Assembly (NCBI GenBank): GCA_051294905.1
Contig: CM119371.1
Coordinates: forward strand, 41,666,001-41,730,000
Reading direction: 5' to 3'
Source: Botryllus schlosseri
Lineage: Eukaryota
DNA length: 64,000 nt
The notes under the pieces: model-generated
Told to the model about the DNA's origin: nothing
Databases searched by the model: none
The model's input: the letters and a program-made list of their open reading frames with translations, nothing else
Shown: positions 2,763-41,917 of the stretch, one piece after another
Position numbering within the stretch: the stretch's first letter is position 1
Layout of the letters: each line of letters begins with the position of its first letter
Program-made: the position numbers and the translations under genes

Positions 2763-4694
2763 AAGCTTTAATGATTAGATGATACCAGAATACCATTATA
2801 TATACCCGCTTCGCAATCTGGTAATCTCAATTTCAATATAGGCTAAATTGTGAATGTTTGCGGTAGCATTATCGACCAGACGTTTACATTTGCGTTATAT
2901 CAACTCGCCGCAGACATTGACATATTGGTCGAGTCGTTATTTCTATGCGTAATCCGACAGCGATTTTCTTCAGTTCGAACGCATTGCTAGCATTGACAAA
3001 TTATCCGACGTGCTGTTCAAACTATTCGACAAATTCCTGGTATCGCTAGGTTGACGTTGAGAGGTATCGCTTAATTCCATGCGTCGAACATGAGACAGTA
3101 ATTTTATAAGCTTTATGAGCGGCTAAAAGGTTTTGTCAAATCGGTAAAACTGATTTTCACGCCTTCGTATAGTCTTACGCTAAGTGATGTCTTATCGAAA
3201 CGAGGCAGGGTTGATGGGTTGGCAACTGGTAAAAGATTTTGTGTACAAACAACCAATCCAGATAGTTTACGGGCAACTTTACCTAACTATATAGTGAATA
3301 GTGAATAGTTCTAATTACGCATATTGAAAATACAGTACTTCTACAAGTCTGCTCTGGTTTGCCAAATCTTTCGAAAATAACGCCTAATAGTGCGAATTGA
3401 ACGCCAATATTCCTAACATCCCAACATATAAGGAAGAACTATAAATTCAGCAGTTCAATTGCGCCCAAAGCGGCTTACTTTAATTATTCTAAAGAACATC
3501 TAATTATATAGATAGATTAGGCTAAAAATCGACACTGTTCCGAACAATCGCATCGCCAAATTATGGAATTGAATGTTACATTCGAATCTAAAATCTGGAG
3601 GGTTTGCTTTTGAAAACGTCAAAGCCGCCGTCTCTGCCTAATTTTATAGTTGGTTCGAGTAAGTTCATACATCCAAGAAGTAATTAGTCTTTATTGCTCA
3701 CTGCGCGATTCTCAATCAATTTTAAGAGGCCATAAAGAGTCATTAAGACGTGACAGATAGATTGTGACAACGCTGTGAACCGGACATCGTGAATCTTGAC
3801 TCAGAAGTGATTCTTACGAGCGCCTTATTTACAGAGATGGACAACTATACAGAATTTTTAGCTTTTTTTAGCTTTTTTAGAACCAAAATGTGAGCATAGA
3901 ATTAGATTAGAATTACATTGCCTCAATTTGCTATAATTAGTTTAATGAGACAGCCAAAATGACCTGGTTGTCTATGTCTGGGCAAAATTGGCTTTGTAAA
4001 AGTTTGTAACACGATTTTCCTCGATTGGTTTGCTACCAAACGCCGCCAGTGATAACAGACAATAGCATCGTAGCTCTGATATCAATTACATGATTCCATA
4101 ATGTAAAATTCTATATCGTTGTAATATTATCTTGAGAGGTGTCAACGAGATACGCGCACAGTAGTAGATCACCGTATCTTGGTAGTGCGAGGCTTGGAAA
4201 ACACTCCATATAGTCGGTAGTATACGCTATCAAGGAAGGGAGCATACAGTAGAGCAGCTGTAGAATATATATAAATCAAATTCAGTTCGTATCAAATCAG
4301 AATGATTCTCATTTTTAAATTTAGATTGGGGTGGAATTTATAGCTACGTAATTTCATGCAAAATTAGATTTCAATTAGCTTCTGTTTTGTTTCAAATTAT
4401 AGCTTGGACTTAAAATGATAGCTACACAGTTTTTTTTACAAATTACACTGGAATTAGAACTAGAAATACACATTTTCCAAATTACATTAGAATCAGAATT
4501 TTAGCTACACCCTTTTTCCAAATTAGACTAGAATTGGAATTATAACTACACAGCTTTTTCCAAATTGGATCAAACTTAGAATGATTGCTAAAGGTACATA
4601 GTGTTCATCGAATTAGTTTAGTATTAGAATTACCGAATTTGCGAAAACTAAGGTTCAGTTCAAGTCATAGCGGAGCTGATTCTCTAATTCTCGA

Positions 4695-5040
4695 CAAGAT
4701 AGCGTAATGGTTAAGCGTCCGGCTTCTTGATCGGTAGGTGGTGGGTTGGATTCCCGGCCGGGTCAGACCACCAAAGACCTGATTAGTAACACTGGTATCC
4801 ATGGCTTCCCTGCTTGGCGCTCATGCGTTACTGGGATAGCATGGAGGGGTGGAGCATCACTTAGAAAGCCGTAAAGGCTACATCTGCATTTCCTTGTCCA
4901 GCGGCATATGCACATCATGCACTCATGGTATGCATATGCGCAGATCGTGTGTATGTGTATCATGAGTCGGTGTGTATGCCACAAAAACATCAAGGACAAA
5001 AATAAACTACGTCCTTTCCTTTCCTTTTCCTTTCCTTTTC
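4695..5040 (+). mobile_element. tRNA-derived SINE (central domain resembling the Meta-SINE core)
   Basis: A-box-like tagcgtaatggtt, B-box-like ggttggattcc, core ccaaagac...ggcttccctgcttggcgctca and a (ctttc)n tail; near-identical copy at 13744-14065. Confidence 0.8.
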
Positions 5041-7650
5041 GTAAGTACGAGAATGGTAAATGTTTGTACAGCAAGCTTAGTTCGTAATATACACAGTTCT
5101 CCTGTTTCATTTTCAGACAAACCACAACTTATATTATAATTCATATGAAAGCATTGAAACATTGCACGATTTAGATTACAATTGGATTTATGCAGACATT
5201 GATTTCGCTCTGATTGCAGAACTCCAATTATCAACATTTGCCCAAGTCTACAATTGAACATAAGGTCTTGTTAATTACATCGAAATGGATTTTTAAAACG
5301 GAACATATCGCCTACATTGAGTAGATTTGATTTAGACCAGCCGTTGACAATAATATTGTAGCTGTCAACTTTGGTGTAAACCCAAAGCAGTCTGGTTTAT
5401 TTAAATATCAATATCTATGCATTGAAGTTCAGTACGTTCCAAAATATATTCAAACTGTATTCTCAAAGTATTCATTGAATTTCCAAACTGAAAGCTTCAC
5501 ATATGGTGCTAAGTGGACGCGTCACTATCAAGTGTTGAGAAAAGGAGGCTTATTAATCACAATTGGACCCGCAGGAACCGCAGGACAAGAAATCCGAAAT
5601 GAATCATTCTATGGGAAACAGTTAAAGTTTTTATCTACATTAATCCTAGTTTAATAATACATTGGCATTCAAAGAAACCCGAATGTTTTCGGCTGGTACT
5701 CGTCGGGGCTCATCGTCAGCAACTAGTAGAGAATTGGAAAGAACATTGCATATCTTCAAGTTGCAAATCAAATTTTAGTGATAGAATTTGCCTGTGACTT
5801 GCAAATGACATTCGTTTGGTATGTTATAAGTATATATTTGTAATATTTTGATCTAATTCCGAAATACCTGTGTAGCTATAATTCTAATGACACTCTAATT
5901 CGGAAATAACTGTGTAGCTACAACTATAATTCTAGTCTAAATTGAAAGTGTGTAGATATAATACTAATTCTATTTTAATTCGGAAAAAAACTGTGTAGCT
6001 ATAATACTATAGTTATACTCTATTTTCGAAAAAAGTGTAGCTATCATTCTAATTCTTATCTAATTCGGAAATATCAATGTAGGTATAATTTTAGTTATAC
6101 TCTAATTGGGAACATTATAATTCCAATCTTATATGGAAACTACTGTACAGCTGTAATTTCAATTATACTCTAATATGGAAAAACAATGTAGCTGTAATTC
6201 TAATTGTAATCCTATTTGGAGGAAATTGTAGCTGTAATTATAATTCTAATCTAATTTGGAAAAATCTGTGAAGCTATACACATCGGCGTATTTGTTTTCG
6301 TATGGCACGGTTCAATCCTCGTTGGTCGCCATTATGACATTACCATACCAATACATTCTGACTGTTAGGTCGTACTGCATATTGGTTTTGTTATGAATCT
6401 GGATTCGTAAGCTGTACGTCTGTATAGCCTACGTAGGCTACTTATACACTGTAGATAAACTAAACGCATTTCCGGATTAGTTTATACAGCATTCAGTATT
6501 AGTCCACACAGTAGGTTTCAGTTATGATCAGGACAGCTTTAGAATTTGCTATACGAAGACTTGGACAATAAATAATTCCTGTTGTATAAATTGGGTGATT
6601 AAAGCGAAATGCAGGTAATATAATACAAATACAATTTGCGAAATGTAATCTAATTCGAAAATAAACTGTGTAGCTATCATTCTGAATTGTAAAATATTGT
6701 GTAGCCACCCTTATCAGGAAAAGGTGTGAAGCTATAATTTTAATTATTAGTATAATTTGAGAAAAAGTGGTGCGTAGCTCTAATTCCAATTCCAATCTCG
6801 TTTGGAAAAGCGGAATATTTTATCCAGTTTTCCAAGTCTGGTTATATGTAGGCCTAGCTCAAATCTATAGTTTGATGACCATGGTACTTTAGGAGTAGCG
6901 CGGCGTGTGACTTTAATTAATAGGGTGTCGTTTGCTGTATTGGTTTTATTTTGAATCTGGATTACGCAGAGGTTGTACTCGGGTTACGTAATCACGGTAC
7001 ATAAATAAACAGGCTTCAAAGTAACCGCATTTCCGGATTAGTTGATACAGCCTGCGGATTAGTCCACACATTACTATTCAAATGAACGATTTATTTTTGA
7101 AATTCGAAGATGTTTGCGCGGGGCGTGATATGTCCTGGACTGCTTCAGACTACACTTTTAGAATTGAAATGAATTGTGATACTTCGAAACTTACCAATGC
7201 ACCTCAGCCGTTGTAAGATAAGGCGTATTTACAATTTTATTCGAAATTTTCGTTGCCACGATATATGAATGATTGCCTACGGATTAGGCTTTTGAAGTAA
7301 TAACTGATGCTGTTAGGAGAGCGATGAATCAATATCGTAATATTGCAATTGAAAATTCAATAAATATGACCGCGGTTTAGTATTTGGAACTGAAAATTCG
7401 GATGCTTTTCAGTTTTCATGCGATATTTTAACCAAAATCAGCCTTGATCAGATTTTAACCCGAGTTTATAAACACCGTATCGAAAGTTTTCTCTGCTCTG
7501 AATTTGATTCAAATCTTAAATCGTTCCATATTCGGGGTTTAGAGTCAGTTTAGGGTCGGGATTAGGTACCGAATTGATTTGCAAACAACCCGCCAAGAGT
7601 AATTTGACACTGATAAAACATTCAGAATTACGATATGATTGTTTTTTCAG

Positions 7651-7860: not shown

Positions 7861-10800
7861 GTGATCATCTCCCTACTATTTTATTCTCTAGTTCGTGGGC
7901 TAGTTTCAATCTGACTTCAGATCGTCTCAAAATCTGCTGACTACGTTCAAGTGTTTATTTTAAGCTGTAGATGTTGTTACAGAACTAGAACTACTGGAAA
8001 TAGATGTATTCACTCTTGAAAATCTAGAACTATAGACCTACTTACATTTCAAAACTAGCAAATAGAACTAGAACTACAGGTACTCACTTTTCAAAATCTA
8101 GATCTAGAACTAAAACTACTCACTTTCAGAATCCGCCACAAGAACTAGCGAGCTACTCAAATTTCAAAATTAGCCACTAGGAACTATACACTATTTTCAA
8201 AATCATTAAATCAAATCCAATCGAATTCTCTGCTTATCAATGTGTATTTATCCGATCGCCACCCTAGAGTGGGATGGAAATCGGGCACACGGCACTTTCT
8301 AACGCTAAATTATGGTTTCACGTTCTTCGAATGGGTAAAAATGAGTCAAATACACCAATTCGTATTCAGACATATCCAAGTGACGCAGTGGATCATGTTT
8401 TCGTTATGACCGTAACCTTAAAGTTTTCGTTGGACTTGCAGAAACTATCCCCTTTCCGAGATCAGCAACTAAAACTAGAACAAGAAATACTAGAGATACC
8501 AACAGTAAGCTTGCTGATAATCAGTAGTTTGTACGGGTATGTCCTATTTCCAGCATTATAATGACAAAAACTAACTTGAAATCGTTCATTTTTTCGATAT
8601 ATCGTAAATGAAAGTAGTTTCAAGCGCTGGATATCGCGTTTCAATTGTCGCTCGCTTTAACATGGTCCATGACGTCATCGGTTTGTTATGGCGGATTTTA
8701 TGAATGAGCCGTTCTTGGCTTCAGAGCTTTAGAATTACGGGAAATGGCCTTTTGTATTGATTCACCAGCTTCTTTGAGGTACAGAACTTCAATATACAAT
8801 TGAATAGTATATTCATATTAAAATGAACCCGAATATTTTCGGCTGACACTCGTCAGGGGTAATCGTCAGCAACTAGTAGAGAATTCGAAAGAACAGCGTA
8901 TATCAACAATCGTAACACAAAATATGACGTCACCAGCACGAAATGTCGAATACGAGAGCGTTCAATGTACTATTTTTAGATGATACACGAACTCTTTTTG
9001 TTGACACAGCCTTGGCTGGTGTATTTTGATAAAAGTCGACTCCAAGGCGCACAAATGAAAGTGTGAGCGACCCTTTCCGAGTATGCGAAATCTGTCGTCT
9101 CGATAATTTTTCGCGCAGGCGTATTGATTCATTGAGTAAATTTCAACAGATTTGAGTTGCAGCTAGTTCGTTTTGTGTGTATACGTATTATTGACCGAAG
9201 TGCGCAACTAGTAGGCGGTGCCGTACTGTAATACCGGTAGATGAGTCACAAGAATGTCATACTGGATACCGCCTGGCGCCTGCGCCTACCACTACATTAA
9301 CAATAATAAGATATGAATTCGCCTTAAACTCTCGAGTTATATACCAGAGGTTGTAGTTAGTACTGATAGAAGTAACGTTTCATAGTTCTACTCAATTTAA
9401 ATTACAAGTTGTTATTTTCAAGTGAGAATTTTTGCATGCTCTCCAAATTAGATTAGAATTAGAATTTGCGATCACTTTCTCATCAAATCACTAATCAGAG
9501 TTAACTCATAATAAGCACGAGAACGGTACACTACACCGGGACTGGCAATATACAGTTCTGTAGTATTTCCAGAAAAACCGGAGATTAAATTAGATTTGAT
9601 TATGGAGCATATCAATTTTCCAGAATTTAGATTAGAATTACAATCACTTAATTTGCTAAGCCACAGTATTGGCTTACTTTTGTAACTAAACCAACTTGAT
9701 TGTCGTTTATTTGCAATAACAACTTGTACAATTGAATAATATAATATTGAAATGAACATGAATATTTTATGGTTTATTTCAATTGACACGATACGAAGTT
9801 ACTATTCAATTGTATACTGAAGCTCTGTATAGGGCTCTTCAAAACACAGCAGCACAGTCTTATTCTTCGTCCTGTTCAGCTACAGACTAACAATATGTAG
9901 CAATAGGCCTTGGTCGGAGCCATAATCTCTCCAGAACAAGTGATGCATTCTGCTTATTGCTTTGATAATAACACTTTACCGGATTTTGTGGAGAATTGGA
10001 TTGGATTCGATGATTTTGAAAAGTGCGAACCGTAGTTCAGGTTGCGCATTTCTTAAAGTGAGTACGGTTGCTCAAAGTTTTAGTTCTAGTTCCTAGTTTT
10101 CTAGATGAATAGTTCTTGTTCTACTTGCTAGTTTTGGAAGGGAGTAGTTATAGTTCTAATTGCTGGTTTTCAAAATGAATAGTTTTAGTTCTAGTTCAAT
10201 TGCTAATTTTCAAAAATGAATAGTTCTAGTTCTAATTGCTAGTTTTCAAAAATGAATAGTTATAGTTCTAATTGCTAGTTTTCAAAAATGAATAGTTCTA
10301 GTTCTAATTGCTAGTTTTCTAAAATGAATAGTTCTAGTTCTAATTGCTAGTTTTCAAAATGAATAGTTCTAGTTCTAGTTATAATTGCTTGTTTTCAAAA
10401 TGAATAGTTCAAGTTCTAATTGCTAGTTTTCGAAATGAGTAGCTCTAGTTCTAATTTCTAGTTTTCAAAATAATAGTTCTAGTTCTAGTTCTAATTGCTG
10501 GTTTTTGAACTGAATAGCTCTAGTTCTAATTGCTAGTTTTCAAAATAAATACCATGGTTCTAGTTCTAGTTTCTAGTTTTAAAAGTGAGTACCGTAATTT
10601 TCCATGTATAATGCGCAAACTTTTACCGTTTTTTTGCCCTAAAATAGGGGGGTGCGTATTATACATGGGTACAGCAAGCCTTGAAAAAAATCTCCCTCAA
10701 TCAAAAACTTTAAATCACACCTTTCTTCATGTTTGTTTCCAATGGTGCATCACCTCTAGCCATCATGCCCCATAATTCGTATTACAGAGTATAGCGTGTT

Positions 10801-13800
10801 GCCAATTAACCAGAGTCGTATGCACAGCACTTGATCTCTTGCTTTTAGTTTGCTGTGTGTACGCGAGCGAAATTAGGTCGCTGATCGCTACAAGCGTGCG
10901 CAGCAATCCTTGCTTATTTTATAGGTTTAAATAAAAAGGTTTGTAGTACTAACAATTTTACTTGTGACAGTTCGTCAAAAATAGGTCTGCGCCGATATTT
11001 TCCCAACTTTATAGTATCAAACAGACTTGGCCATGTAGTTTTAGTTCTAGCTCTAGTATTCTAAATCTCTCTTGTGAAATGTTTCCATACTCCCATTTCA
11101 ATTCCGATTCTAATCCAATTTTTGAAATGTTTCCATACTCTAGTTGTAATTCTAATCTACTTCCTGGTTCTCCGGAAAATGCTACAGGAAAACTGTAGGC
11201 TATAGTGTGAAATGAGTCTAGCTTGCTGTACAGACATTTGTCATTCTTGTGCTTGCAAAAATCATCTATGATTTGATAGCCTATCCAAGTTTTCGCAAAT
11301 TCAGTAATTCTAATGCAATTTGTAAAAAAACTATGTGCTTCAGCTAATATTCTAATTCTAATCTAATTTGGACAAAATCGATGCAGTTATCAATCTTATT
11401 TTAGTCTTATTTGGAAAGATTAGGTAGCTATAATTTAATTTTAATCTAATTTGGGAAAAAACTATGTGGGTATAATTCTAATTCTAATCTAATTTGGACA
11501 AGAGTGTGTAGGCTAGCTATATTTCAATTCTAGTCCAATTTAGAATAGAGTTGGTAGCTACTAACTATAATTCTAATTCTAGTATAATTTGAAAAAGAGT
11601 GAAAGCTTTTATTGTAATTTTAATCTAATTCGTAAAAGAGAGTGTATTGTGCATGTGCATGCTGTTTTTCTAATTTCAATCTAATTTTGAAGAAAAAAAC
11701 TATGTAGGCCTAGCTATAATTCTCATTTTTAATCTACTTTTGAAAAAACTGTGTCTAGCGATCATTCTATATTTAATCTAATTAGGAAAAAAAATCAGTA
11801 CCTTTTTACAGAAGTTTTTTAGCTGACTCTCAAAGTAGTTAGGTCTCGAACAGAAGTAGAAATAACGCTCCTCAAGCACCCCTGTTGATAATCTATATTC
11901 TACCCGTCGATATCAGAATACTCTGAAGTATAAGTAACCAATTTCCGAGTTAGTAAGAAAATTAATATAAAAATTGTGGGAGCCTAATAGTTTATGACTG
12001 TTCATTTTTTCCAGAAAACGCCAGATTCTGAGATTTCTCGCAAAAACTCGAGTTCGAGTTCGACTACGATCGATGAACCAGAATCGGGAAGGAAAAAGGT
12101 TCCCCCGAAGTAATTTATTATTATTTTAAAATTCAAAGTGCCGAATTTCGGACACATATCCTGTTTCGAAAACACTTTTATCCCAATCCAATGTCCAAGT
12201 CTGGATCCACGAGTTCTGTTTCAGTTCCGAGATGTCGGAGTCCATTTCTGAACGAATGTCGAGACTACGCAACAAACAGAAGGAAGAGAAATGGAGGAAA
12301 GAGAACAGAAGTTCTGAGGTCAAGTCCAGTGTCTCCGAGAGATTGAACTCTTTGAAAGGACAGGAGGAAAGGTGAAAAACTATTATTTTTCAAAACCACC
12401 CCGCTAAATACACTACCGAGTAGAAATTGATAACATTACTTCTACGTTTTTATCGGTTGTGACCAAGACACAAGGCTCCGAGTCACAGGTCAATATCGCT
12501 TTGATAGTTTTGACTCGAGTCGAGTCATTTTCAATTCACCACCGAGTTAAGTCCGAGTCAGCTAGTAGAGGGTCGAGTCCGAGTCATGGTATTGTGACTC
12601 GAGTCCGAGTCCAAGTCATTGTGTTGACTGCTCAGTTTCCGGTTAAAGTCTCGTTAAACCCACTTTTTATAACTCTGTTTGGCGATATCGAATGGTTCGC
12701 ATTCATAGTATACTAAATTTCCTCACTTTTTGCAACCCTGCTTTTTACATTACAACGTTGACTGCTACTTGAAGCAGTTTTTGTACGTCTTGTAAATCAA
12801 TACTTCAACTAGTAATTGAGTAGCTTTAGATGAGTGCTCTTCAACCTTTTTCGCCAAGGTACAACCTTTTACCGTTTACTGAAAACTCATACACTCCTGA
12901 CCCCCAGTTATACACGTCCGCATTTCGAATACACATAACATATGGTTGCACTCCAGCAGGGTGTCGTCATAGCCCCCTGCACAACAAAAAGCCTATTACT
13001 GGGAAATTTGCCTTTGTGGTGTTCTGTGCCATCGCTGAGTTCTTGATATATACCATGTGTATGAAAGTTTCTACATGCAGGCTTACTATATAAGATATGC
13101 ACCAAAATCGCGAGGATAAATGTTAGGGAAAGTTGATGGAATGCAACTTCTAGTCCGTGAAAATCTTCTCAACCTCGTGAAGGAATTTTGTCGTTAATAT
13201 TATAGGTAGGGCAATTTAGTTTTGACGTGTAAAAAAAAGTCAAAATTCGATCAAAATTGTTGACAAGTCAGAACTTTTTGCAGCTTGCATTTCGTTTTTG
13301 TCGTAGATTTTGCACGGCGAACTTATCATTCAACATTTTACAGCTTGTAGCCTACTTTATCGGCCTACCATTGTAGACGGCCCATTGTCTGATCATTGCG
13401 AATCATAAACATTCAAATGAAACAAATAGGTAGACATGGTGTTATATGCTTAACGTGCCGCAATATCCCAACTGGAGCAGGACTGCGTGGGCACTGCATG
13501 GTTCTTATATCAAGAAGCGCATGATGAAAAATTGTGATGTAGACAAAACTGTCAGAATGAAGCAACACGGTGTGTCACCAGCAGTGTACGCACAACTTTC
13601 GTGTTGTCAGCCAACAATTACTGCTATCGAACGTTCTTTCTCCATTCTTGGCAAGCTACTTAGTAAGGACAGACACTTTCTAGTCGAGAATGCAGGAAAG
13701 TAATTTTCTGTTGCACCACAAATTTTTTCAATTATTTCTACCAGGAAAGGACGTAGTTTATTTTTGTCCTTGATGTTTTTGCGGCATATACACCGACTCA

Positions 13801-16800
13801 TGATACGCATACACACGATCTGCGCATATGCATACCATGAGTGCATGATGTGCATATGCCGCTGGACAAGGAAGTGCAGATATAGCCTTTACAGCTTTCT
13901 AAGTCATGCACCACCCCTCCATGCTATCCCAGTAATGCATGAGCGCCAAGCAGGGAAGCCATGGATACCAGTGTTATTACTCAGGTCTTTGGTCTGAACC
14001 GGCCGGGGATCCAACCCACCACCTACCGATCAAGAAGCCGGGCGCTTAACCATTACGCTATCTTGACCATAATATGTAATGTAACTACTGGAATTCTGCA
14101 AAGGGCCAGATTTCGTTCAAATGAAGTTTTTTTTCTTCTCAAAATTGTCAGTTTTTGAGGCAAAAAAGTATTTTATCATGCCAAACTACTTCATAAGGAC
14201 AGACAGTTTCAACCAGAAATGAAGATAAGTAGTACAATTCCGTTATTATGTGGGAAAACACCTAGTTCGCATACGCTAGGCCAAATTTGGTCAAAGTTAT
14301 GATTTTTTTAAGGTCCAAAAATGTTAAAATTTTGATTTTTTAGGTCAAAATCTTCTGTTTTTTAGGTAAAAAAATCGCCCTAATAATCAGTTACTTCCCA
14401 GCTTGTTGATGGATACGTGGCTAGCTCATTGGTTTCCTGTCCGGGTCAGACCAAAGACTCAAACACTAGTATTCACGGCTCTGCATCCGCGTATAGTATA
14501 GACGAGATAACGTAGGGGATGCAGACGAAAATAAATCGGATATCTCCCCCCTGTTACTTGTAATTCAGTAGAATTTTAATGACGATACTTCTACTTCTAC
14601 TTCAGTTGCGATAATGGCTGGTACTTGGCAGGGTTATAATGACTCGAGTCCAACTCTTGATTTTTTAGTGACTCGACTTGACTCGAACCATTTTTTCAAG
14701 TGCGTAAAATGACTTGTCTCGAGTCAATCTGTGTACTGAACAGGTAGCATAATGACTTGAACTCGGACTTGACTCGGTGGTGAATTGAAAATGACTCCAC
14801 TTGATTCGAGTCAAAACTATAAAAGTGACTTGGTTACAACTCTGGTACTTTTTGGCATCTCTTGAAATCATTATTTCCACTTGTAATTGAATATATACGG
14901 TATTCACAAAATATTCATTCTTTAGTAGTGATGCTGACTTCTCCGCTAACATGTATTTGTTGATCAGGTGGAAGAAAAACAACCCGGAATTTGTGGCCCG
15001 CGTCGATAAATTGAGCGACAGGATCGCGAAAATCAAGGAAGGAACGGAATCGTGGAAAAATCGGACGGGAAAACAAAACGACGCCGCTCAGTTCACGATT
15101 CAGGCAAAACTGGCGAAAAGAGGTTGGATTTCACTAAGTTCTGCTAAAATATTGCTCGTTTTTCGAGTTACGATGTGAAAATCCGACTTTCAAGACAACA
15201 TGTTAAAATTGGTCTGGGAAGATGATAGATATCAAATAACGAATATTTGGGTGTAGAGAATTTTTATATACATTTGAATATATGATTATGTAGCTTTCAA
15301 ACACATCTCTAAATCTAAATCCACAATTAGCTGGATGTAGTGTTTAAATCCTATTTGAAATCACGTATTTGTTAAAAAAAGGTGGCTTAAAAGATCAGAA
15401 ATTTCAAAATTGGGATTCAACTCCAGAGGCCAAAAAGTTGGTTTCAGCTCTTTCTTCTCATGGGAAGAACGAAATGTGCCCCAAAAAGTGTCTTGAAATC
15501 TAATTCTGCAATTGATTTGCGTGTCAAAACTCCAGCCTTCAGAATTTGTTTTTAAATTTCAAATTTCTATTCGAAATTCAACTTCTTGTCCGCAGGGCCT
15601 TGTGCAGAAATGCAATTGGGAAATTTCAGACTAACGAGCTTACATTTCAGAAATTCAACCCAAATTCCAGGCTCACAAGCTCATTTCTCTGAATATGAAC
15701 CCAATTTTCAAGCTCATGAACTCAAATCTGAGAATTTCAACCCAGTTTTCTAGGCTCACAAGCTCCAATCTGAGAATTTCAACCCAATTTTTAGGTTCAC
15801 AGGCTTATTTCCCAGAATATGAACCCAATTTTCAAGCTCATGAACTCAAATCTTAGAATTTCAACCCAATTTTCAGGCTCACAAGCTTATTATAGTATGA
15901 TCCAAATTTCAGGTTTATCACAAACCCTTTTTATTTTCCAGAAGGCAAAAAGTTAGTTTCAGTTCTTCCTTCGCCTGTCGTAAAACGCCGAGTCGTCTCG
16001 TCTGAGATCGTGACTCAACAGAAAGCCGTCACCATTGACGACGCTCACAAAAACGACGACTCATCGAGCATGACTCAGCTTTCGTTCGTTGAGAAACTTT
16101 CGAAAAAAGGACTCGAAGAAAACGTGATCAAGGTGAAAAAGTGCTCCCCGTGGACACCCATATGTAGGTTTAATGATCACCATGAACATGTCTAGTTGTC
16201 TACGTGTTTGGTGTTTCACATGAGGACGGTATAGGGAATGATCCCCTTGATCACCCGTATTTATTGATAGAAGCACACTTATACAGTTATATTTTTTATT
16301 CCAGACGCAGGAAGTTTTAACGATAGAGGTTCCAATGATAGACCAGCAAGAATTTGACAAATTTTTCACGCAGCCCTCTCCGCATCAGCACAACCACACG
16401 AACCACTTGTCCGAAGACATTGAAAATTTCCCCTCGCAAGAGGTGAGCTCATTTATTAATTCCGCAAAGTTTTTGCGCCTAAACAATTAGTTTTGAGAAG
16501 TAGAATTGGTCGGAAGCGGCTTTCCTGTTGTTTATGTGGGCGAATGTCGTTTGTTTTCAGAATTTCTGTCGTCTCTCAGACCTGGGACGTCTGAAATCTT
16601 CCGTGAAAATGCGAACGAAACGAAAACCTTCTCAGAGAAATCCGTTGAAAGCTCTTGCCGCGAGAACTGACATCAAGGTGACATTTGGATGGACTGTTAC
16701 AAAACGAGACAACCAAGACTTATAAATTACATTACAATTAAAATTGTAGCTACAAAGCTTTTCAAAATCGGACCACAATTAGAACGATAGCCACACAGTT

Positions 16801-19800
16801 TTTTTGCCAGATTACATGAGAATTAGTACAATTTGAGCTATACAGTTTTTACCAAATTAGATTAGAATTGGAATTATGGGTATAAAAGTTCTTTGCCAAA
16901 GTAGACTAGAATTGAAATTATGGCTTTTAATTTCTTTTTTTAAATTAGATCAAAATTAAAATCATTGCTACATTTTTTTTCAAATTAGATCAGAATTAGA
17001 ATTATGGCTACAAAGTTTTTTTTCAAAATAAATTATAATTGCAATTATGGCTAGAAAGTTATCTAGTAGCTATCTTTATAATTCTATTAAAATTTTGAAA
17101 AAACTCTATAGAGCTAGCATTTTAATTCTAATGCCAATCCAATTTGTAAATTAAAACTAGCTATAACTCTAATTATAATATAGAGCTATCATTATGATTC
17201 TAATCTAATTTGGAGAAAAGGTGTGAGATATCTTTCTGATTCTAATGTTTTTTCAATAATAATTCTAATGTAATTGGTTATTCTAATTATGATTGTAAAA
17301 TAACTTTGAAAAAACTACAGAGCTATCATTCTAATTCTAAAGCAATTTAAATGAAAGCTGTGTAGCTTCAATTCTAATTCCAATATAATTTGCAAAAGGG
17401 GCGTGTAGCTATCATTCTAATTCTAATGTAATTTAAAAAAGATTTGTAGCTTCTATTCTAATTCCAATCTAATTTGGAAAAAGGCGTGTAGCTATCATTC
17501 TAATTCTAATGTAATTTAAAAAAGATTTGTAGCTTCTATTCTAATTCCAATCTAATTTGGAAAAAGGCGTGTAGCTATCATTCTAATTCTAATGTAATTT
17601 AAAAAAGATTTGTAGCTTCTATTCTAATTCCAATCTAATTTGGAAAAAAGAGTGTAGCTATCGTTCCAATTCTAATGTAATTTAAAAAAGATTTGTAGCT
17701 TCTATTCCAATTCCAATCTAATTTGGAAAAAGGCGTGTAGCTATCATTCTAATTCTAATGTAATTTAAAAAAGATTTGTAGCTTCTATTCTAATTCCAAT
17801 CTAATTTGGAAAAAGGCGTGTAGCTATCATTCTAATTCTAATGTAATTTAAAAAAGATTTGTAGCTTCTATTCTAATTCCAATCTAATTTGGAAAAAGGC
17901 GTGTAGCTATCATTCTAATTCTAATGTAATTTAAAAAAGATTTGTAGCTTCTATTCTAATTCCAATCTAATTTGGAAAAAAGAGTGTAGCTATCGTTCCA
18001 ATTCTAATGTAATTTAAAAAAGATTTGTAGCTTCAATTCTAATTCCAATCTAATTTTGAAAAAGGCGTAGCTATCATTCTAATTCTAATGTAATCAAAAA
18101 AAGCTTCGTGGCTTCAATTCTAATTCCAATCTGATTTGGAAAAAAGAGTGCACCTATCATTCTAATTCTAATGTATTTAAAGAAAAGCTGTGTAGTAGGG
18201 CTGTTCAAAAATAACCTTTTTTCCTGAATCTTGCTGGTTACGTGATTAAATCGTTGGGTTGCCTTAAAAACGACGCACACCAAATTTGAATTCATTCCAA
18301 CCAATATTCGCGGCATCGCGGGTTTCGTACAGTTTGAAAATTTTGAATTTGCCCAAAAATGCAAAAAAAAAATTTTATTTAAATTTTCTTCCGACCCCAT
18401 GAAATTGTTGCGCTGTCTTCAAAAACGATGCAAAACAAATTTGACTGATTTCCAAGTCGTAAAAGTGGAGTGATTTCCGTTTTTCTTTGATAATTCTGGG
18501 ATTATCCTTGATCGGTGGATCATCCCAGAATTATCATCGAAAAACTTGAATAACTCCGCTTCTACAGCTTGGAATTGAGTCAAATTTGTTTTGCATCGTT
18601 TTTCAATGCCACCTAACAATTTAATCACGTAGCCAGCAAGATTCAGGAAAAAAGGTTATTTTTGAACAGCCCTACTGTGTAGCTATCATTTTAATTCCAA
18701 TCTAATTCGGAAAAATAACGTGTAGTCGTGTAGCTATCACTCTTTTTCTAGTCTGATTTGGGAAAAAGTGTGGGGCATTGTTCTATGCTGATCTGATTTG
18801 AGTAAATGTGCGTAGCTACCATTACAATTCTAGTCTAATTAGGAAATAAAACTGAAGGTACAACTTAATTCTGATTACAATCTGACTTGAAAATAAAACA
18901 GTCGTTATAATAGTAATCTACTATGGAAAAAAGTGTGTAGCTGCAATTCTCATTCAAGTCTAATTTTGAATTCTATCTTTCAACTTAATTTGGCGTAGCT
19001 ATCGTTGTGATTTCAATGTAATCTTGAAAAAGGTGTGTAGTTGGGCTCTTCAAAAATGACTTTTTTTCTCAAATCGCACTGGCTACTTGTTAAAATTGTT
19101 AGGTTACCTAATTCAAGCCTACGCACAAAATTTGGTTCAATTCCAACCAGTAGCCGCATTGCTACAGGAGAAGAAAGTTTGCATTTATTACATAAAAAAT
19201 AAATAACAGAAAATTTGAAAATTTTCTGTTCACCCCATGAAAGTGTTAGGCTGTCTATAGAAACGATGTCCACCAAATTTGGTTCAATTCCAACCAGTGT
19301 AAGCGGAGTTATTGCCGTCAAAAAATTTGGATTAAAATAAAATAGTATTTACGGTGGGCACCACTATAATTAATAATTAAAGAATTGGTCACCGTAAATA
19401 CTATTTTATTCATAATCCAAATTTGGTGTGTAGCTATCCGTATAATCGTAATGTGGAGAATCATTCCTGTAACGACGGTTGTGTTCTTCCAGCAATCATA
19501 CGATACAGAACGATCCAACGTTGTGAAATTGGAGCAGCAGAGAATCGCGTCTCAACGAGGCTACGGGGCCAATTTCACTTCCGCGGCTTTGGCTGGACTC
19601 GCGGCAAAAGCTGATCTCAAAAAGGTTTGTAATACTTGAAACTTCATTCGTAACTGCTATCATATATAGAAGTATCTACCTAAATAAGTGGTCGAGAACC
19701 TATGGCTGGTGAGCCATATGTGGTATTTTTGGGTATAAAATGTGGCTCTTTGCCAAATATTTATTTTATTATCACTGAATTGATCAATATTTTGGCAACT

Positions 19801-22800: not shown

Positions 22801-25800
22801 ATCTAATTAAATTAGAAGCAGAAATAAATTTCAACCTAAACTCAACTACTGGTAGTGATATCAAAATATAATTAAAATAGAAGCGGAAATAACTTTCCAT
22901 TTCTTCTCAACTACAAGTAGTGATATCAAAATCTAATCAAATTAGACGCAGAAATAACTTTGAATTTAAACTCAACTACTGGTGGTGATATCAAAAACTA
23001 ATTAAAACTACTTCAATTAGAAACTCCGTCAGCTCCACTCAATTATGAGTAGTGATAGCCATTTTCAAGACAAGTAGTTCAAGTAATATTAAAACTACCG
23101 TGACATCATTAACATTGCTCCTTGCACTGTTAGTAAACATTACTAAAACTAAAACTAAATCCATAGCGTAAATTATTTTGCCTGCAAGATACCGTCGACC
23201 AACCTTACTAGTCAGTAGTCAGCTGTCTGTGGGCTACTTGTTATTTAAAAATTCGACCTATTTTCAAATTTCGCTTCCGCCTACTTGAGTAGGCTACTTG
23301 CTGACGATCTTTGCAAATGACTTGTCCAGGAAATCGCCGACTACATCGTGATCAAAGGAGATTTGGGCTGCAAAGTATCTTCTCTGAAATCGATCGAGGA
23401 GAATTCCAGTCCCACTCTGCATTCGGACTTCTGGGACATTCTCGGAGGACAGTAAGTATCGACTTATTCTGCCCTGTCTAGACAACTACCTCATTCTGGA
23501 AGTCTAATTAGACTAATTGAAGTGAAATGCCAGTAGAATCACCTATGATTTGAACTAAACTGATTGAATTGAATTACCAAATTTACACGATTTCAGTAAA
23601 CTAATTCTGATCTAATTTTGATAAGCTGTTTTGATATCATTCTAATTCTTGTGTAATTTAAAAAAAAAAATTCTTCTATTAGTAATCTAATTAGAAATTG
23701 AATTAAATATCCATGTTTTCGCGAATTTATTATTTTAATTCAAATCTAATTTAAAAAAACGGTCTTGCTGTTATTCTAATTTATTATTACTCGGATAATC
23801 TGCGCACCTATTATTCTAATTGTAATCTATCTAGAAATTAAATTAAATATCCATGTTTTAGCGAATTCAGTATTTTAATTCTAATCTAATTTAAAAAAAA
23901 ACTTGTGTCAGTCTCATTTTAATATTACTCGGATAATCTGTGTACCGATTATTATAATTGTAATCTAACTAGGAATTGATGGCAATTACCAAGTTTTCGC
24001 CACTGCATTAATTATAATTCAAATCTAATTTGACCAAGCTGTGTGGCTATTGTTCTAATTCTAATGGGAATTTGGAAAACTGTGACCTATTACCAATTTT
24101 AATCTAACTATAAAATTGAAGTCAGATTCCATTACCGTAGCTCTAGTTCTGATGTAATAATGAAAATCGGTGTAGGTATCATTTTAATTCTAGTGTAATT
24201 TGGAAAAACTGCGTTCATATCATTTTATATGTAGGCTAATTTAATTCAGGAATGAGTTCAATTTCGGAATTTTTCGTGAATATCATTAATTCCAGTTTTA
24301 ATCTGATTTGGAAAAGCTCTGTATCTATCATTCTGATTATAATGTAATTTGGAAAAACTGCATACTTTAATTTTAAATGTAGTCAACTAGAAATTGAACA
24401 GATGTCCAATTTTTTAACATTCAATAATTGTAATTTATAAAAGCAGTGTAGCTATAATTCTAATGTAATGTGGTAAAACTACATACCTATAATTTTCATC
24501 AACCAAATTTTCATTCTGCTGGACAGCTTGAGCATACGACCCCTCGACCGTATTTACATTTCGAAACTTCTCCCATACTATTCAGACCTTCATTTTTCAA
24601 TTCTACTTGAAGTAGTTTTGGCGTGTCTTGGGAATCATTATTGGTTCTTTGGGTGGAAACTAATGACATTACTTGTTCTCGAGTATGGGAACCCTCGATC
24701 AAATCGATTTCTTAATGAGAATCCGCGAAATTCAATGTCATAATTCTACTTCATTACCGAAATTATTAGTTTATAAGTTTATAATTCTTTCAATTTATAT
24801 TCAATTATTTTTTTTATAATGATTTCAAATAATGCCATTAATTTTTGTTGCAGTGGAGATTGGGACCGAAATCCATCGCCTGGCAGTGACGAAAATTACG
24901 AGGTCGACGTCGAAACTACAATCAAAACCTACAAAATGACGGTATTGCAACTAACGACATGTTGATTACAATTAGATGAGAATTAGAATAATAGTTACTG
25001 TAGTTTTTCTTCCAATTTTAATTAGAATTATAGCCACACAGATTTTCGAAATTGGGATACTACTAGAGTCATAGTTACATTTTTTTTTTGAAATTTAGAT
25101 GAGGATTATTGTCACGGTTGTAACCAAGTCACCAGGCTCCGAGTCACAAGTCAATCTTACTTTTATAGTTTTGACTCGAGTCCAAGTCAGCGAGCAGAGG
25201 GTCGAGTCCGAGTCATGGCATTATGACTCAAGTCCGAGTCCAAGTCATTGTGTTGACTGCTCATTTTCCAGTTAAAGTCTTGGTAAACTCACTTTTTATA
25301 ACTCCGTTTGGTGATATCGAATGTTTCGCAATTATAATTCGCAATTATAATAATTATAATTAGTGACCAATTTTCCTCACTTTTAGCAGTTTCGGGTTGC
25401 ATATTCGAGTACCAGTGCCCACAGACGAAATCCTTATACTGTGTTGGCTTCGGAATTACAATGAAATGTCGGTCTTGGTCGTCTGAGTCTCGAGTCATAT
25501 GACTTGGTTCGAGTCATGCGCAATGACCTGAGTCCAAGTCGAGTCAATACACAGATTGACTCGAGTCGAGTCATTTCCGTATTTTGAAAAAATGACTCGA
25601 GTCAAGTCGAGTCATCAGAAAATCGTGACTCGAGTCGAGTCATGACTCGAGTCATTACAACCCTGATTATTGTTATAGTTATTTTTTTTTCAAGTCAAAT
25701 TAGAATGATAGCTACACAGTTTTTTCGAAATTTGACCCAAATTAGTATCATAGTTAATTTATTTCCAAATTAGATTAGAATTATAGCTGCAGTCTTTTCG

Positions 25801-28800
25801 AAATTAAACTATAATTAGTATCATAAATATTTTTTTTGAATGATATTAGAATTATATCTACATTTTTTTTTCGAAATTAGACTACAATTAGTTTTATAGT
25901 CAGTTTTTTCCAAATCAAATTAGAATTACAGCTGCCGTCTTTTCGAAATTGGACTAGAATTGGAATCGTAGCTGCATAAGGTTTTTGAAATTAGATTAAA
26001 TTAGCCACTTAAAATGAGAACATAGAATCATTTCACAAATTAGATCAGGGACATATCGATTCAATTAGAATAACTCGTCAACTAGAATGCTAGCCTGACA
26101 ATAACTTTATCTACGACAACTAATTTCAGGGCTCTAAGTTGGTTCCTCACCCCGAAGCTTGGGGCAGACTGCCCAAAATGTCGATGCTCCAACCACCAGA
26201 CACGTTCGTCTTTGATTTTGGAGCGGAAATGTACATCTGGCAGGTAAAATGGGCCTTTCTATAGCCTTAGAATCGCATATTACAAACCACTATTCTAATT
26301 CGTTTACATTGCTTTGTCAGTAGTTCTAGTTCTAATTTTTTAAAAGTGACTAGTTCCAGTTCCAGTTCTGAGGGTTGGAAGGTGAGTAATTTTAGTTGTA
26401 ATTGCGGATTTTGAACAGCAAGTAGTTCTAATGCAAGTTCTGAGGTATGAAAATCGGTTAGTTCTATTACTAGTTGAGCATTTTAAAAAGTGAGTAGTTC
26501 TAGTACTAGTTGGGTATTTTAAAAAGTCAGTTGATCTAATTGTAGTTCTGAGGTTAAAAGATGAGTAGTTCTAGTTCTAATTGCGGTGCTAGTTTTGAAA
26601 ACAGACTAGTTCTAGTTGTAGTTGGTAATTTTTAAAATTGAGTTGCCCAAATTGTCGTGAATTTTGTGAAGTGAATAGTTGTGGTTCTAGGTGCAGAGTA
26701 CTTCTAATTATACAGGTTCCTTGCGGTACAGAATTTGAATATTGCAACGAACAACACATTCATATTCGCATTTATTTACACCAAGCTTTTCGACTGATAC
26801 TCATCGGGAGCGGCCGTCAGTAAATACGGAGATTTCAATTTGAAATATAAAGTGGAAATAAGTAGTGTGACATAAGAATGGTATAGCAACGACGAGAGCA
26901 TTAAGCAAAAATGCAATTAGCACAAAACAAATCGACTATAATATACAGCCAGAGACGAAACACTCATGAAATACAAGGAGGAAAAGAGTCGGGCCTTTTG
27001 CCGACAAAGAATCGGTTGCTAACGTTTTATTATAGTCGATTCGAGAACCTTAACATGAAACAGAGTACGTCCACGAGCAAGAATCGAAAATCTGCTATCG
27101 TTATACGATTTTGCACATTCAGGATGCGTAAGAAGGTGGCAGAGTGGCATGCCACGGTCTGGTCATAGACTTGCAAGAAAGGGTTACCTGTCTGCGATTG
27201 GGTGTCTGATATGGCATTGACGTAACTTGTAGCTTGTATTTTGAAAATGTTCAGAACTAGAATTACTTCCTTGTCGAAACTTGTCTTCTATTTTGTCCAC
27301 GTGTTAACATGCAAAGATTGGTTTTTGTTTGTAAATTCCGATAGTCTCTCGTTACCAGGGAAAAGAAGTTTCGTTTGCTGACCGTAGGCTGGCGATCCGA
27401 CTTGCTCGAGTACTGTGGGAGGAGGAGTACGATTTCACGGAGCAGGGAGTCTGCCCTTTTCACGGCAAAGACTTGAAAGGGAAAAGGCCCGCGTTCGGGT
27501 TATTCGCGAGGTTCGTTTTAACGAAAACCACGAAATAAAACAACCAACAGAGATTTGAAAATGATTTGTGGGTTGTACTTGCAACACGTATTTGAAATGA
27601 CTACTTTGGTTTGAGTAGAACTTGACAAGGTGCTTCCACTTGTGAAGCTATAGCAATATTTCAATTCTAGAATACCTAATTTTATACTTGGAAAACACCA
27701 AGTAGACATTCGCAATGCTACTTCCACTTGAGTAGCTGCAGTGGAATATAATGTAAGAAAACTTTGTAGAATGAAACCAAATGAATAGTGGTGTTTATCC
27801 CAATTCTAGTAGGCCACATTAACTTGGTGTGTGTGCGGTGTGTGCAGTGAACCTGTGTCCAAGTCAAGTCCAAGTCAACCAAGTCATATGACTCGAGACT
27901 CTGACGACCAAGACCGCCATTTCATTGTAATATAAAAAAATAGTAAAACAACCGCACTGTGCCCAAGTGGTACTTGGAAATGCGACCGGAAATCGAAAAA
28001 AATGACTACACGCGAATATTACCATGCGATATCACGAACAAAGTGGTTCAACTCGTTCAACAGTTATCACTAGGGCAAGTTTTTGCAGCTTTTGCAACTT
28101 TTTTTTACAGCTCCCGGCAGATTCCTAAATACTCGTAAGAAATGCAGAATGCTGATTTAAGCTGTTTGAAGGAATCTTATAGTGCAACTTCTTGCTACTT
28201 TTGTCCATTTTTTTTCCATGCAACTTTTTGCAACTTTTTCGATTTTACATGAAAGTATTTTCGATTTTGGTGAAATACACGCTTTTACGGGTATTTTGGG
28301 AGCTGAGCCAGAAAACCGACCTTTTTTTTAGTCAATCTGGGAAGTTGACCTTTTTTTTAGTCAACCGAGCAAAATGTGGTTTTTCAGTGCAAGTTTTGTG
28401 AAAAAATAAATGCAACTTTTTACGGCAACTTTTGTCAAAAATAACTGCAACAAAAACTTGCACAGAAAATTACACCACCCAAATCGAAAGGCATCTGTTA
28501 AATCCGACATGTGACAACATGAACATTGAACAATGATGGAACAATGCAACACCCATCATAACAATATTTATTCAACTCGAAAACGGCTCCGTGTTTAGTG
28601 ACGTATGACAGGATGCCGTGATGTCACAGTGGCAGACGGCTGGGTCCGCATGTGACGTCACAGTTGCTATTTCACGGCCTTTCGCTAATCTTCATCTCCG
28701 AGCAGCAAAGGAGGAAGAAGCCCTCGTTGTACCGGTCATCCCAGAAGAGTCCGTTGACGTCTGTTTTGTTGAAGTTTCCGTTCAGGCTGAAGCTGTTGCA

Positions 28801-31800
28801 GTCGTCATCATACCACCAGGGACCTTCGTAGTAAGCGGCACAATTCCCAGACCAACCATCGTGATCCGCGCCGGGCGTCGAGAATTGTTTATTGCTGCTG
28901 AACACGAGACCATCTCCCATCCCGGGATAACCGGATCTGTAGTCTGTCTGTAGTTGTCGGATTCAGGACCGACGCTGAAATGGCTGGAAAATCAACAAGC
29001 AGTTCTTATTTAATCATGATTGAGGCGTCCAAACAAAGCTTGCCTGTATTTTGCCCACACATGGATTCCTGCTTCATGATAGCCTGGTCTCTCTCTCGTC
29101 ATCATGTTGATTTCCAACGACATGTTTCCTCCTTTTGTCAACTGGTGCACTGTCTCGAGCCCTGGAAACAGATACGATAGAAGCCGTCGCTTTTATATCA
29201 CTACACTATCAATGGAGACTCTATTACTCAAACTCCGATTCAAATATAACGCAAAACCCCCCTAACCAAGCCAGAAATCTCCATCGCAATCCCCGAATCC
29301 GTTCTTGTAATCCTCCCAACCTCGGTCGAAATCAACATTTCCATATTTTCTTCGCTGGAAAACCTGAAACGGAATTCATAAAACTCACAAAGTCCAACAA
29401 ATCTCACGACTTTTCTTCTATAACTGTGGGTTCGAGGTTACGGCTCAAAATTTGAGGGTGTCTCGGCCTTATAATAAACTTTGACTTGTTAGCGATGTTG
29501 CCAAGGTTAAAAATTCTACTCACAGTCCATTTCTCGTGTGCAGCACACGTTTTCTTCATCTCTTCTGCTCTCAGTCGAAGCTCGTGGTTCGCAAGTCCGA
29601 ATGTCACAAGAAGCCACACCCTCGGCGACATTTTTAGTCACGCAGCACGCGTAAAAAAAGATGCGCCCAACTTCAACTGAGCCTTGCAAACAAATGTGTT
29701 GTTCACCAATTGCATATGTTCTACACAACTAACCCTTCCTTCAAGAGGACTTCCTGACAACGCTTAGGAAATGCGTTGGAACGCGTTTCACAGTAAGCTC
29801 AATCGGTCTAGCATCAGATCAGAAGGAAAGCTTCTTTGAAACGAAATTAGCGATGCCTCGATCTCGCTTGAATACAAATCAAAATGATCAGATCTTGCAG
29901 ACTTGCGGACAACTAGAAAATGATAGCTTTTCTGAATTAGATTAGAGCTACACAATGTTTTCCAAACTTGATTGGAATTAGAGCTACACAGATTTTTCTA
30001 AATTACTTTGAAATTACAGCTACGCAACTTTTTTTACAAATTAGATCAGAATTATACCTACACAACTTTTCCAAACTAGTTTAGAATTAGAGCTGCACAA
30101 TTTTTTTCTAATTAGATTAAAATTAGAGCTACATATTTTTTTCCAAATTAGATTGGACTTAGAGCTACACTTTGATTGCCATATTTTTGTTGCTCAAATC
30201 CCGACACTCTTTAGCGCCTACTAGCGGATTTTGCAATGAGATATGACTACGCACTCATTCCCTAATTAACCACTGATTCCGTAATTAACATTTGTGATGC
30301 CGTAATGAGCCGTCAATAAAAATATTAAAAACATCTGATATTGCGGACGCAAACACTTTTACTCAAGTAGTTATTGTGGAATATATTGTAATAAAATTTT
30401 GTAGAACTCGAACTAAATTGATGATTGTCATATTTTTCAATCCTAGCATACTCACATTTTTACTTCAAAGACGCTACTTCTACTTGAAAGTGAGTAGAAA
30501 ATTACAAAGTTACTCCTACTTTAGTAGCTGTAGTGCAGTGGTTCTCAACCTTTTTGACCCGCTGACTCTTCTCAAGCTCGTCTATATATATCTCAAGCTT
30601 TATATTAACGAAAAGTAGGTTTTTTGATTTCTCTCCAGGAGAGTGTAATACGGTATCAACAAAAAAGCAAGCACTGGTTTTCACTCAACCCACACTTAAT
30701 GAGAGCTTTGTCCTTGATAACAGGTTGACAATCTGTCAACGTGTGTGCCGAGCCGATTATGTTACTTAAAATTTCTGTGCTCGCGGACTCAAATGAGTCC
30801 GCGGACTCGGGGTTGAGAAACACTGCTGTAGTGGAATAAAAAAATTTTTAAATAGAATTAATTTTAATTCTTCGATAATTTTTCATTTTTACGATCTTTT
30901 ATATTTTTTGATAAATATTTTGATATTTTTCCAGAGTTAACGAGAATCTGGAAATTAAACAAAATTGATTATGAAACTTAGTATACGTGTAATTGAGTCC
31001 AAATTTATAAAAGTTACTTCTGCTTCGAATTGACTAGCTATAGTGAAATATAATTGAATAAATTTTGCAAAATTCTTCCAAATTGATAATTGCGATTAAT
31101 TTATTATTTTGATTCTTCCAAATATTTTTTATTTCTTATGATTTTTTTTATCATTTTTCAGAGTGAACGAGAATCTAGAAACGTCTCTCTTCCAAGAAAA
31201 ATTCGACGACTGGTCCAATATTCATCGAGAAACCGCAAAAGACGAAGCCGTTCTGCGGGAAAATAATCGAGGAAAAACGGAATCTGAAATCGGGGCGAAA
31301 ACGGAAATTGCTATCGATTTGAAACCTTGTGACGTCCTAAAGATGATGGAAAACAAACCAAAACATTTTCCTCTTATTGTTGATGGTATGATCTTTGATT
31401 AGGCTATTTAATTGATCTGCTAAAAAATAATAAAAAACCTTGAATACCACAATTCCAGTCTCAAGCTATTTTCAACCCAACAAGCTTATTTCAACCAAAT
31501 TTTCATGACCACAAGCTTAAGTCTCTGAATTTCAATTTTCAGGCTCACTAGAATATTTTAACTAAATATTTAGCCTCACAAGCTTGAATATCTGATTCGC
31601 GACCCAATATTTAGTATCACAAGCTTAAATGAATATCCACCCCAATTGAATTTTATCCCAATATTAAGTCTCACAAGTTATTTTCAACTCGACAAGCTCA
31701 TTTTCTAGATCACAAACTTAAATCTCTGAATTTCATCCCAATTTTCAGGCTTTCAAGGATAATTTCAACTGAATATTTAGGCTCACAAGCTTAAATCTCT

Positions 31801-41610: not shown

Positions 41611-41917
41611 TTTATTTCCGTATTATGCTTTGTGAGCCATACGCGCCTCTTTTACTGCACTCCAGACTGCCAGATTTCTAGTAAATTTATTCACAGCATG
41701 CTTCCGTGTCGCAGCAGTAGCCAACTATCATCAACTCAGTTCAGGTCAGGGCTCTCCAACGAAAAATTTCAATCATTCATGATTGAATCGGTCAATATGA
41801 TCGGGAATTGCATATATATTGCTGTCATTTTTTCATTCTTTCTCTGCTCAATTGCTCATGTATTCAGATTTATCGATAAAGCTGAGTGAGGTGTCTTGGA
41901 AAATGTAGGGCCTGGAA

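Follow-up and report, generated by a model that had tools for sequence, protein, structure and literature searches.

Truncated ends of Penelope-like elements (PLEs) that carry hammerheads number in the thousands in animal genomes. In the 64,000-nucleotide window considered here (the whole stretch of DNA that was analysed), a dispersed repeat at 8.8 kb carries a hammerhead-like motif on the minus strand, which raises the question of what kind of element brought the motif there and whether its RNA would cut itself. The original prediction took the repeat for a member of a non-autonomous, ribozyme-bearing mobile family. Our reading, held with high confidence, is that it is a 5′-truncated copy of an endonuclease-bearing PLE, with an 11-bp duplication and an empty allele, whose pseudo-LTR (pLTR) holds a type I hammerhead with a one-pair helix II, a predicted 7-bp pseudoknot as its brace, and cutting that is likely confined to dimers. 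The element itself is ordinary; the build of its ribozyme is less so.

Read directly, minus strand 8860-8827 is ACCC CUGACGA GUGUCAGCC GAAA AUAU UC GGGU, exactly as had been claimed. The candidate type I hammerhead (8827-8860, minus strand) comprises a 4-bp stem I (8860-8857 with 8830-8827), the core CUGACGA (8856-8850), the single helix II pair G10.1-C11.1 (8849/8841), a 7-nt loop II (8848-8842), the GAAA box (8840-8837) and the helix III palindrome AAUAUU (8837-8832), with cutting predicted after C8831, between 8831 and 8830. C3-A9, G12-A14, A15.1-U16.1, H17 and the three helices are all there, and related loci show the same layout 106-196 nt downstream of the ORF end. The copies at 5.7, 26.8 and 34.6 kb fall short of this type I core. 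A loose hammerhead scan of 1-44,000 returned three matches, where 60 Markov simulations averaged 0.27 and in no case (0/60) reached three, and the compact geometry is found only at 8856; the match at 34663 draws on an upstream repeat of the core, and the one at 23301 was set aside as probably due to chance. Rfam reported no hammerhead family at the gathering score across the whole window, and the covariance-model check that the original prediction had recommended found no hammerhead even at E values up to 10 (8600-10000; 8800-8900). Among the best 40 of 165 contig-derived variant rows, none lay inside 8821-8885, and of 185 pattern matches in viral contigs, none was confirmed.

The limits of the element carrying the motif are set by its flanks. 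The 356-bp segment 8765-9120 (minus strand) lies between exact 11-bp repeats at 8754-8764 and 9121-9131; chance sharing of an 11-mer has a frequency of 1.1% among random window pairs. In run X3, from another sample, record 25 aligns with 8400-8753 and with 9121-9358, the two parts being contiguous in the record; by joining 8753 to 9121 it represents an empty allele that retains one copy of the 11-bp repeat. Record 16 of X14 likewise begins at 9121. The insertion is present on some chromosome copies and missing from others, and this polymorphism, together with the clean duplication, indicates that the family was recently mobile. Contig depth gives the same limits: run X1 placed 45,438 contigs on 8400-10200, and summed depth, which in X1, X3 and X14 is a sum over contigs and not a copy number, reached millions over 8766-9070, peaked at 8827-8887, fell stepwise towards 9131 and stood at 54-290 (X1 and X3), a single-copy level, over 9132-9436. 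These profiles show that the PLE family is very abundant and that its 3′ end is the common part.

The same observations bear on a plain DNA transposon, which the original prediction had kept as its alternative and in which 8780-9830 would be one TA-flanked MITE with terminal inverted repeats and an incidental hammerhead look-alike. Both inverted matches that had suggested it exist: one, of 39 nt at 87%, joins 8780-8818 to 9791-9829, each beginning with TA, and the other involves 34843-34886. However, homology at the left continues to 8766, past the end that such a MITE would have, the 'terminal repeat' corresponds to the start of a retroelement ORF, and the duplication is of 11 bp rather than 2 bp and sits elsewhere. 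The single-copy interior (9132-9436) and the empty allele, which misses just 8765-9120 and one duplication copy, refute the MITE reading, and we give it practically no weight; the first inverted pair belongs to two insertions, not to one element. We conclude that 8765-9120 is almost certainly a truncated Penelope-like copy. Its supposed partner is a separate small head-to-head insertion (9727-9843) that has no hammerhead core and was recognized by blastn and by raised depth over 9681-9863. It consists of tail pieces at 9727-9768 (minus strand) and from 9791 to about 9843 (plus strand), the second covered by blastn over 9791-9829 and extended to about 9843 from its reading frame, and it shows no target duplication of 6 bp or more. 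Adjacent inverted or head-to-head pieces have been described for PLEs (PMC8557442).

Coding sequence on both sides of the hammerhead ties the insertion to this class. Upstream, an open frame (9120-8965, minus strand, stop at 8964-8962) encodes the C-terminus of a PLE GIY-YIG endonuclease over 52 codons and the stop (8962-9120; profile score 71.7). A 57-aa minus-strand frame matched both of two candidates (P0001 and P0002) at 82% identity with E about 1e-24, and tblastn aligned the endonuclease C-terminus at 90% over 51 aa. The two short window peptides matched no Pfam family, and the family link comes from the homolog search instead: with one of the two proteins as query, 24 longer relatives among 968 candidates have RT-EN ORFs of up to about 850 aa, PF00078 (the RT family) is found in 22 of these 24, and of four full-length relatives scanned all have RVT_1 above the cut-off and three have GIY-YIG just under the Pfam cut-off. 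Downstream, the ORF start opens with an ATG at 8816 and runs for 17 codons (8765-8816, minus strand), including an optional tail of about 35 nt that is delimited by two classes of 3′ end. In a profile of the relatives' N-termini, 26763-26710 and 8816-8766 rank top in 1-46,500; a weak match at 15287-15231, without an upstream hammerhead by eye, was left uncounted.

In the 8.8-kb copy the hammerhead lies 105 nt after the stop, and the ATG follows 14 nt after the predicted cut. This order of ORF end, UTR, hammerhead and ORF start identifies the segment as the pLTR plus tail of a PLE, and a hammerhead also stands at the ORF start in the full-length loci L008, L011 and L012. The window holds both ends of the ORF; the RT is absent from its truncated copies and is found in the relatives as part of full RT-EN ORFs. 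The linked Penelope RT/GIY-YIG reading frames that the original prediction had suggested looking for are therefore at hand, with the endonuclease end in the window and the complete frame in the relatives, and its view of the motif as a type I hammerhead, palindromic at stem III and linked to Penelope-like elements, is upheld by the core and by the coding homology. The motif CX2-5CxxC is missing from the RT-EN linker in all nine full-length relatives (9/9), and an extra Zn-finger-like CX2-5CxxC in this linker marks Neptune and Nematis (PMC8557442); this absence, the one feature used for placement, points to an element of Penelope/Poseidon type.

The related copies named in the original prediction are real and confirm this origin. 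A short copy (5650-5754, minus strand; 82% over 105 nt) and a truncated copy with an endonuclease tail (34596-34840, minus strand; 86% over 249 nt) belong to the same family. As had been noted, the first has a CCGA core and the second is decayed; in the first, 5/7 pseudoknot pairs are left to the decayed hammerhead, and in the second the hammerhead is destroyed. At the 5′ junction of the 34.6-kb copy lies an inverted piece (34843-34886, plus strand) that adjoins another repeat (34888-35170). The truncated copy at 26713-27141 (minus strand) belongs to a second, more distant PLE family, as judged by profile, N-terminus profile and motif, and contains an endonuclease remnant with one stop (27141-26980, minus strand), a decayed hammerhead (26821-26778, minus strand) with G at the cleavage position and the AAGCUU at stem III and CCGA core reported earlier, and an ORF start at 26763 (minus strand). 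We rejected a tblastn extension of this remnant to 27387, since it would overlap an exon of supervillin (27353-27511) and only 27141-26980 has profile support. No convincing target duplication was found for the 5.7-, 26.8-, 34.6- and 9.8-kb pieces. Endonuclease-coding sequence lies upstream of the motif in three of the four main copies and an ORF start downstream in two of the four, which makes them truncated copies of a coding PLE; a separate non-coding family, as first proposed, is not needed to explain them.

An extra short non-autonomous subfamily might still account for most copies, being about 120-130 bp long (8767 to 8885/8895), retrozyme- or SINE-like and moved by the PLE protein. Depth drops about threefold from 8827-8887 to 8888-8948, loose contig ends in X1 lie behind 8885 (189) and 8895 (195), a head-to-tail joint from 8885 to 8767 occurs in X1 and X3, the 5.7-kb copy spans just 105 bp, and a 2026 preprint derives retrozymes from PLE pLTRs (10.64898/2026.07.22.740005). 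However, the 8.8-kb copy and two others include endonuclease sequence, the depth falls off over several steps, which is also what plain 5′ truncation would produce, the loose ends at 8895 could reflect breaks in the alignment of diverged subfamilies, and summed contig depth does not equate to copy number. The contigs contain tandem and strand-switch joints; the window has no tandem array of the motif, its copies being dispersed. We consider such a subfamily unlikely and retain the truncated coding PLE as the source of the window copies.

The 3′ ends of these copies fall into two classes. Ends near 8800 were found in the 5.7-kb, 34.6-kb and 9727 pieces and, among the matches listed, as loose contig ends at 8798-8801; ends at 8765-8776 were found in the 8.8-kb and 26.8-kb copies, and among the matches listed at least 713 X1 contigs have loose ends at 8767. 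The spacing between the two classes is about 35 nt in the 8.8-kb family and about 30 nt in a related one, where the distance from cut site to end is 22-40 nt in 20 of 40 distinct copies and 56-66 nt in 16, with one further end at 47 nt and three beyond 100 nt (five loci, including the reference, are omitted from this count). This pattern matches the optional 30-40-bp tail of PLEs (PMC11167929, PMC8557442), which Frangieh et al. link with two sites of RT initiation within the ORF (PMC11167929).

We then turned to the relatives for the structure of the ribozyme. A protein-based scan of metagenome contigs yielded 201 candidates; 179 of them were confirmed, and 80 loci were kept. A strict canonical-core pattern placed a motif after 8 of 65 related ORF ends. 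A relaxed pattern with the window's spacing, modelled on motifs already observed, placed one 106-196 nt downstream of 50 of 61 ORF ends, mostly copies of one family and hence not independent loci, and in none of 70 control stretches just upstream; 42 of these 50 motifs have the core UUGAAGA, with a U3-G8 wobble. In the loci used for the comparison of structure, whose peptides are 45-67% identical to those of the window, the 7-nt loop II pairs with the 7 nt ahead of stem I. In the 8.8-kb copy the predicted 5′ strand of this pseudoknot is GCUGACG (8864-8870, minus strand), which forms 7/7 pairs with loop II.

The pairing was assessed in an alignment of 11 rows, picked out of 68 matches for carrying the motif and to span families. 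In it, 94.2% of cells pair, compared with 20-38% in slid controls, and both sides change in 5/7 pseudoknot pairs, in 2/3 counted stem I pairs and in the middle palindrome pair; 0/500 shuffles equalled these pairing and covariation values. The covariation of helices that the original prediction had proposed to examine is thus seen across families, as compensatory changes in stem I, palindrome and pseudoknot. When each of the six families is represented by a single row, 40 of 42 pseudoknot pairs are kept, whereas swapping strands between families leaves a mean of 29 pairs, and of the 720 assignments only the true one reaches 40. Stem III is palindromic throughout the families (AAUAUU, AAGCUU, AACGUU), and 5/6 families keep the catalytic boxes, G10.1-C11.1 and H17 while the helices change. 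By eye, no conserved helix IV can be made out in the alignment. We regard the pseudoknot as very probably real.

Whether the structure is a ribozyme is a separate matter. The element may be a PLE whose RNA structure acts as a signal for protein binding, dimerisation or translation and has no useful cutting rate. The U3-G8 cores in 42/50 related copies would fit such a role, as would the predicted fold of the monomer: its lowest-energy form is inactive, with the core paired with loop II, in a program that does not model pseudoknots, and self-pairing of AAUAUU contributes only -0.2 kcal/mol. Published metazoan PLE hammerheads also cut poorly in vitro (PMC4209133), and a test made with one PLE showed that insertion in vitro can do without the ribozyme and revealed no RNA ends at the cut site (PMC11167929). 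Against a signal alone, the catalytic boxes, G10.1-C11.1 and H17 persist despite the changes in the helices. Fast cleavage is known from a type II hammerhead whose stem II has one pair, with activity lost and regained as its pseudoknot is broken and restored (Perreault et al., PMC3088659), and the anole PLE ribozyme does cleave, for which it requires its protein (PMC11167929). The trap hairpin between core and loop II is not conserved across families. We therefore think a signal without useful cutting improbable, though to be taken more seriously than a short subfamily. On the reading of the motif as a ribozyme, its pseudoknot, in a hammerhead with a one-pair helix II, likely helps self-cutting, and the keeping of a covarying 7-bp pseudoknot in a PLE clade suggests selection on a folded, probably catalytic structure.

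From these features a mechanism can be proposed. The full-length RT-EN protein would nick AT-rich DNA, as PLE biology suggests (PMC11167929, PMC8557442), and reverse transcription primed at the nick would begin within the ORF start, at a distance of about 30 or about 65 nt beyond the ribozyme; by stopping early, after 356 nt, it could have left the truncated copy. Two motifs in the tandem transcript of the parent would pair through their palindromic helix III halves, which has been proposed, and weakly demonstrated, for the hammerheads of PLEs (PMC4209133), and the pseudoknot would hold helices I and II parallel through a helix I-II contact. The cut after C8831 would then trim the RNA at a point 14 nt upstream of the start codon, probably aided by the element's protein. 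Dimer cleavage in the parent element seems somewhat more probable than its absence; for the host gene, the lone 8.8-kb copy is most likely an inert passenger.

That host gene resembles supervillin. Its exons lie on the plus strand from 14966 to 41607, the best solved relative of its headpiece is supervillin, and its supervillin relatives were found by a full scan, none of them by word-index search. Mapped exons stand on either side of the 26.8-kb and of the 34.6-kb copy. For the 8.8-kb and 5.7-kb copies the exon on the upstream side is a weak match (584-670, E 0.012) and the next one begins at 14966, which makes them probably intronic. The antisense orientation noted in the original prediction is true of all four main copies, a count with a two-sided chance of 1 in 8 and hence not significant. 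The ribozyme strand would be absent from the host pre-mRNA.

In its overall plan the element resembles canonical EN+ PLEs of the Penelope/Poseidon type, such as the anole element PAc (PMC8557442, PMC11167929): RT and then a C-terminal GIY-YIG in one ORF, as seen in the relatives, with 5′ truncation, adjoining inverted pieces, a pLTR hammerhead at the ORF start and an optional 30-40-bp tail. In PAc, however, stem II is where the ORF begins, and cutting takes place 26 nt after the start codon (PMC11167929), whereas in the 8.8-kb copy the ATG follows the predicted cut. Non-LTR retrozymes (PMC7229834) are comparable as repeated animal elements with a type I hammerhead that are likely moved by PLE proteins, but their units are non-coding, tandemly repeated, about 170-400 nt long and equipped with canonical hammerheads, whereas the window copies are dispersed and contain ORF remnants.

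The ribozyme itself shares with the minimal hammerheads of metazoan PLEs (PMC4209133) the type I topology, a short helix I, a palindromic helix III, G10.1-C11.1 and a place in the pLTR; its 6-nt palindrome is as in Drosophila variants, and U3-A8 and U3-G8 cores both appear in Fig. S3 of that study as well. It departs from them at helix II. Cervera and de la Peña characterize the PLE hammerhead as long in helix II and minimal in helix III (PMC4209133), and helix II has 3 bp or more in 56/56 of the motifs listed in their Fig. S3; the very short stem II regarded in the original prediction as a PLE trait is not the one published for these elements. The short stem II itself is present in the window motif, accompanied by the pseudoknot that had been overlooked. 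Where the consensus of PMC4209133 has an extra unpaired base after A9 and a multi-pair helix II, the window motif has no extra base, one pair, a 7-nt loop and a covarying pseudoknot with its 5′ flank, and a review presents PLE hammerheads as variants without helix III or without loop-loop contacts (PMC7761336). Parallels at this point are the pseudoknot-stabilised hammerheads (PMC3088659, PMC11300833), in which helix II is one pair or is replaced and a 6-7-bp loop II pseudoknot forms the tertiary contact; in the crystallised example, the partner of loop II is the loop on an additional stem, helix IV (Zhan et al. 2024, PMC11300833). Unlike these, the window form has a palindromic, probably dimer-dependent helix III and resides in an animal retroelement. 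Our literature search returned no account of a pseudoknotted PLE hammerhead; outside its scope lay Lünse et al. 2017, where such contacts are reportedly treated as common in hammerheads generally. That the element is of a known class and that its ribozyme departs from the published PLE form is well supported, with a prior description possible. More tentatively, and less likely than not, an animal PLE clade may have united in one hammerhead the fast, pseudoknot-braced one-pair helix II of microbes and phages with a dimer-gated palindromic helix III. If true, this would provide an efficient metazoan PLE ribozyme, fast at physiological magnesium when two copies come together, with which the role of hammerheads in PLE mobilisation could be tested.

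A hammerhead motif lies about 150–200 nt past the ORF end in an abundant related Penelope-like element (PLE) family among the loci recovered by a protein-based scan of metagenome contigs (L002–L080). In 42 of the 50 motifs the core carries a U3–G8 wobble, with the pseudoknot between loop II and the 7 nt ahead of stem I and the palindrome of stem III both retained; rarer core forms are C3–G8 (five motifs) and U3–A8 (two). The U3–G8 family may have spread after its ribozyme had weakened. Within the window, CCGA replaces CUGA at 5706–5700 and 26807–26801, both on the minus strand and in copies of two different families, and may reflect either chance decay or a tolerated variant.

Joints in sequencing-run contigs mapped onto the 8.8-kb PLE copy connect 8885, 8938 and 8824 with an earlier position near 8767 (region 8767–8885), showing that at other genomic sites pieces of this family stand in tandem, head to tail. 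Such pieces could be sites of dimeric folding.

A repeat roughly 330 nt long is present in two mutually inverted copies (4687–5020 and 13743–14073) that share 93–96% identity. Another dispersed repeat (19043–19328 and 34888–35170; 90% over 286 nt) has further copies near 18.2–18.7 and 21 kb, and its copy at 34888–35170 adjoins the inverted PLE piece ending at 34886. An abundant minisatellite family, with units of 36–46 nt and a common AT-rich motif, is dispersed through introns (4433–4566, 5852–6112, 11305–11601, 16846–18181, 23670–24031, 25675–25995 and 29936–30170). A supervillin intron also holds, on the opposite strand to supervillin, a fibrinogen C-terminal domain exon (28675–28962, minus strand; Pfam PF00147, E = 1.8e-08), which makes it a nested gene or gene fragment.

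From 46867 to the window end extends a large satellite array of at least 66 overlapping copies, many at 97–100% identity, whose start-to-start spacings of 193, 341 and 489 nt form a higher-order pattern. At 44775–46796, inverted arms of 461 nt, 99% complementary, flank a 177-nt tandem array (45298–46337), an arrangement that marks a young foldback-like element. Directly past the supervillin headpiece exon, nested inverted arms of 92, 232 and 179 nt (94–96%) at 41917–43881 delineate a second foldback-like element of about 2 kb.
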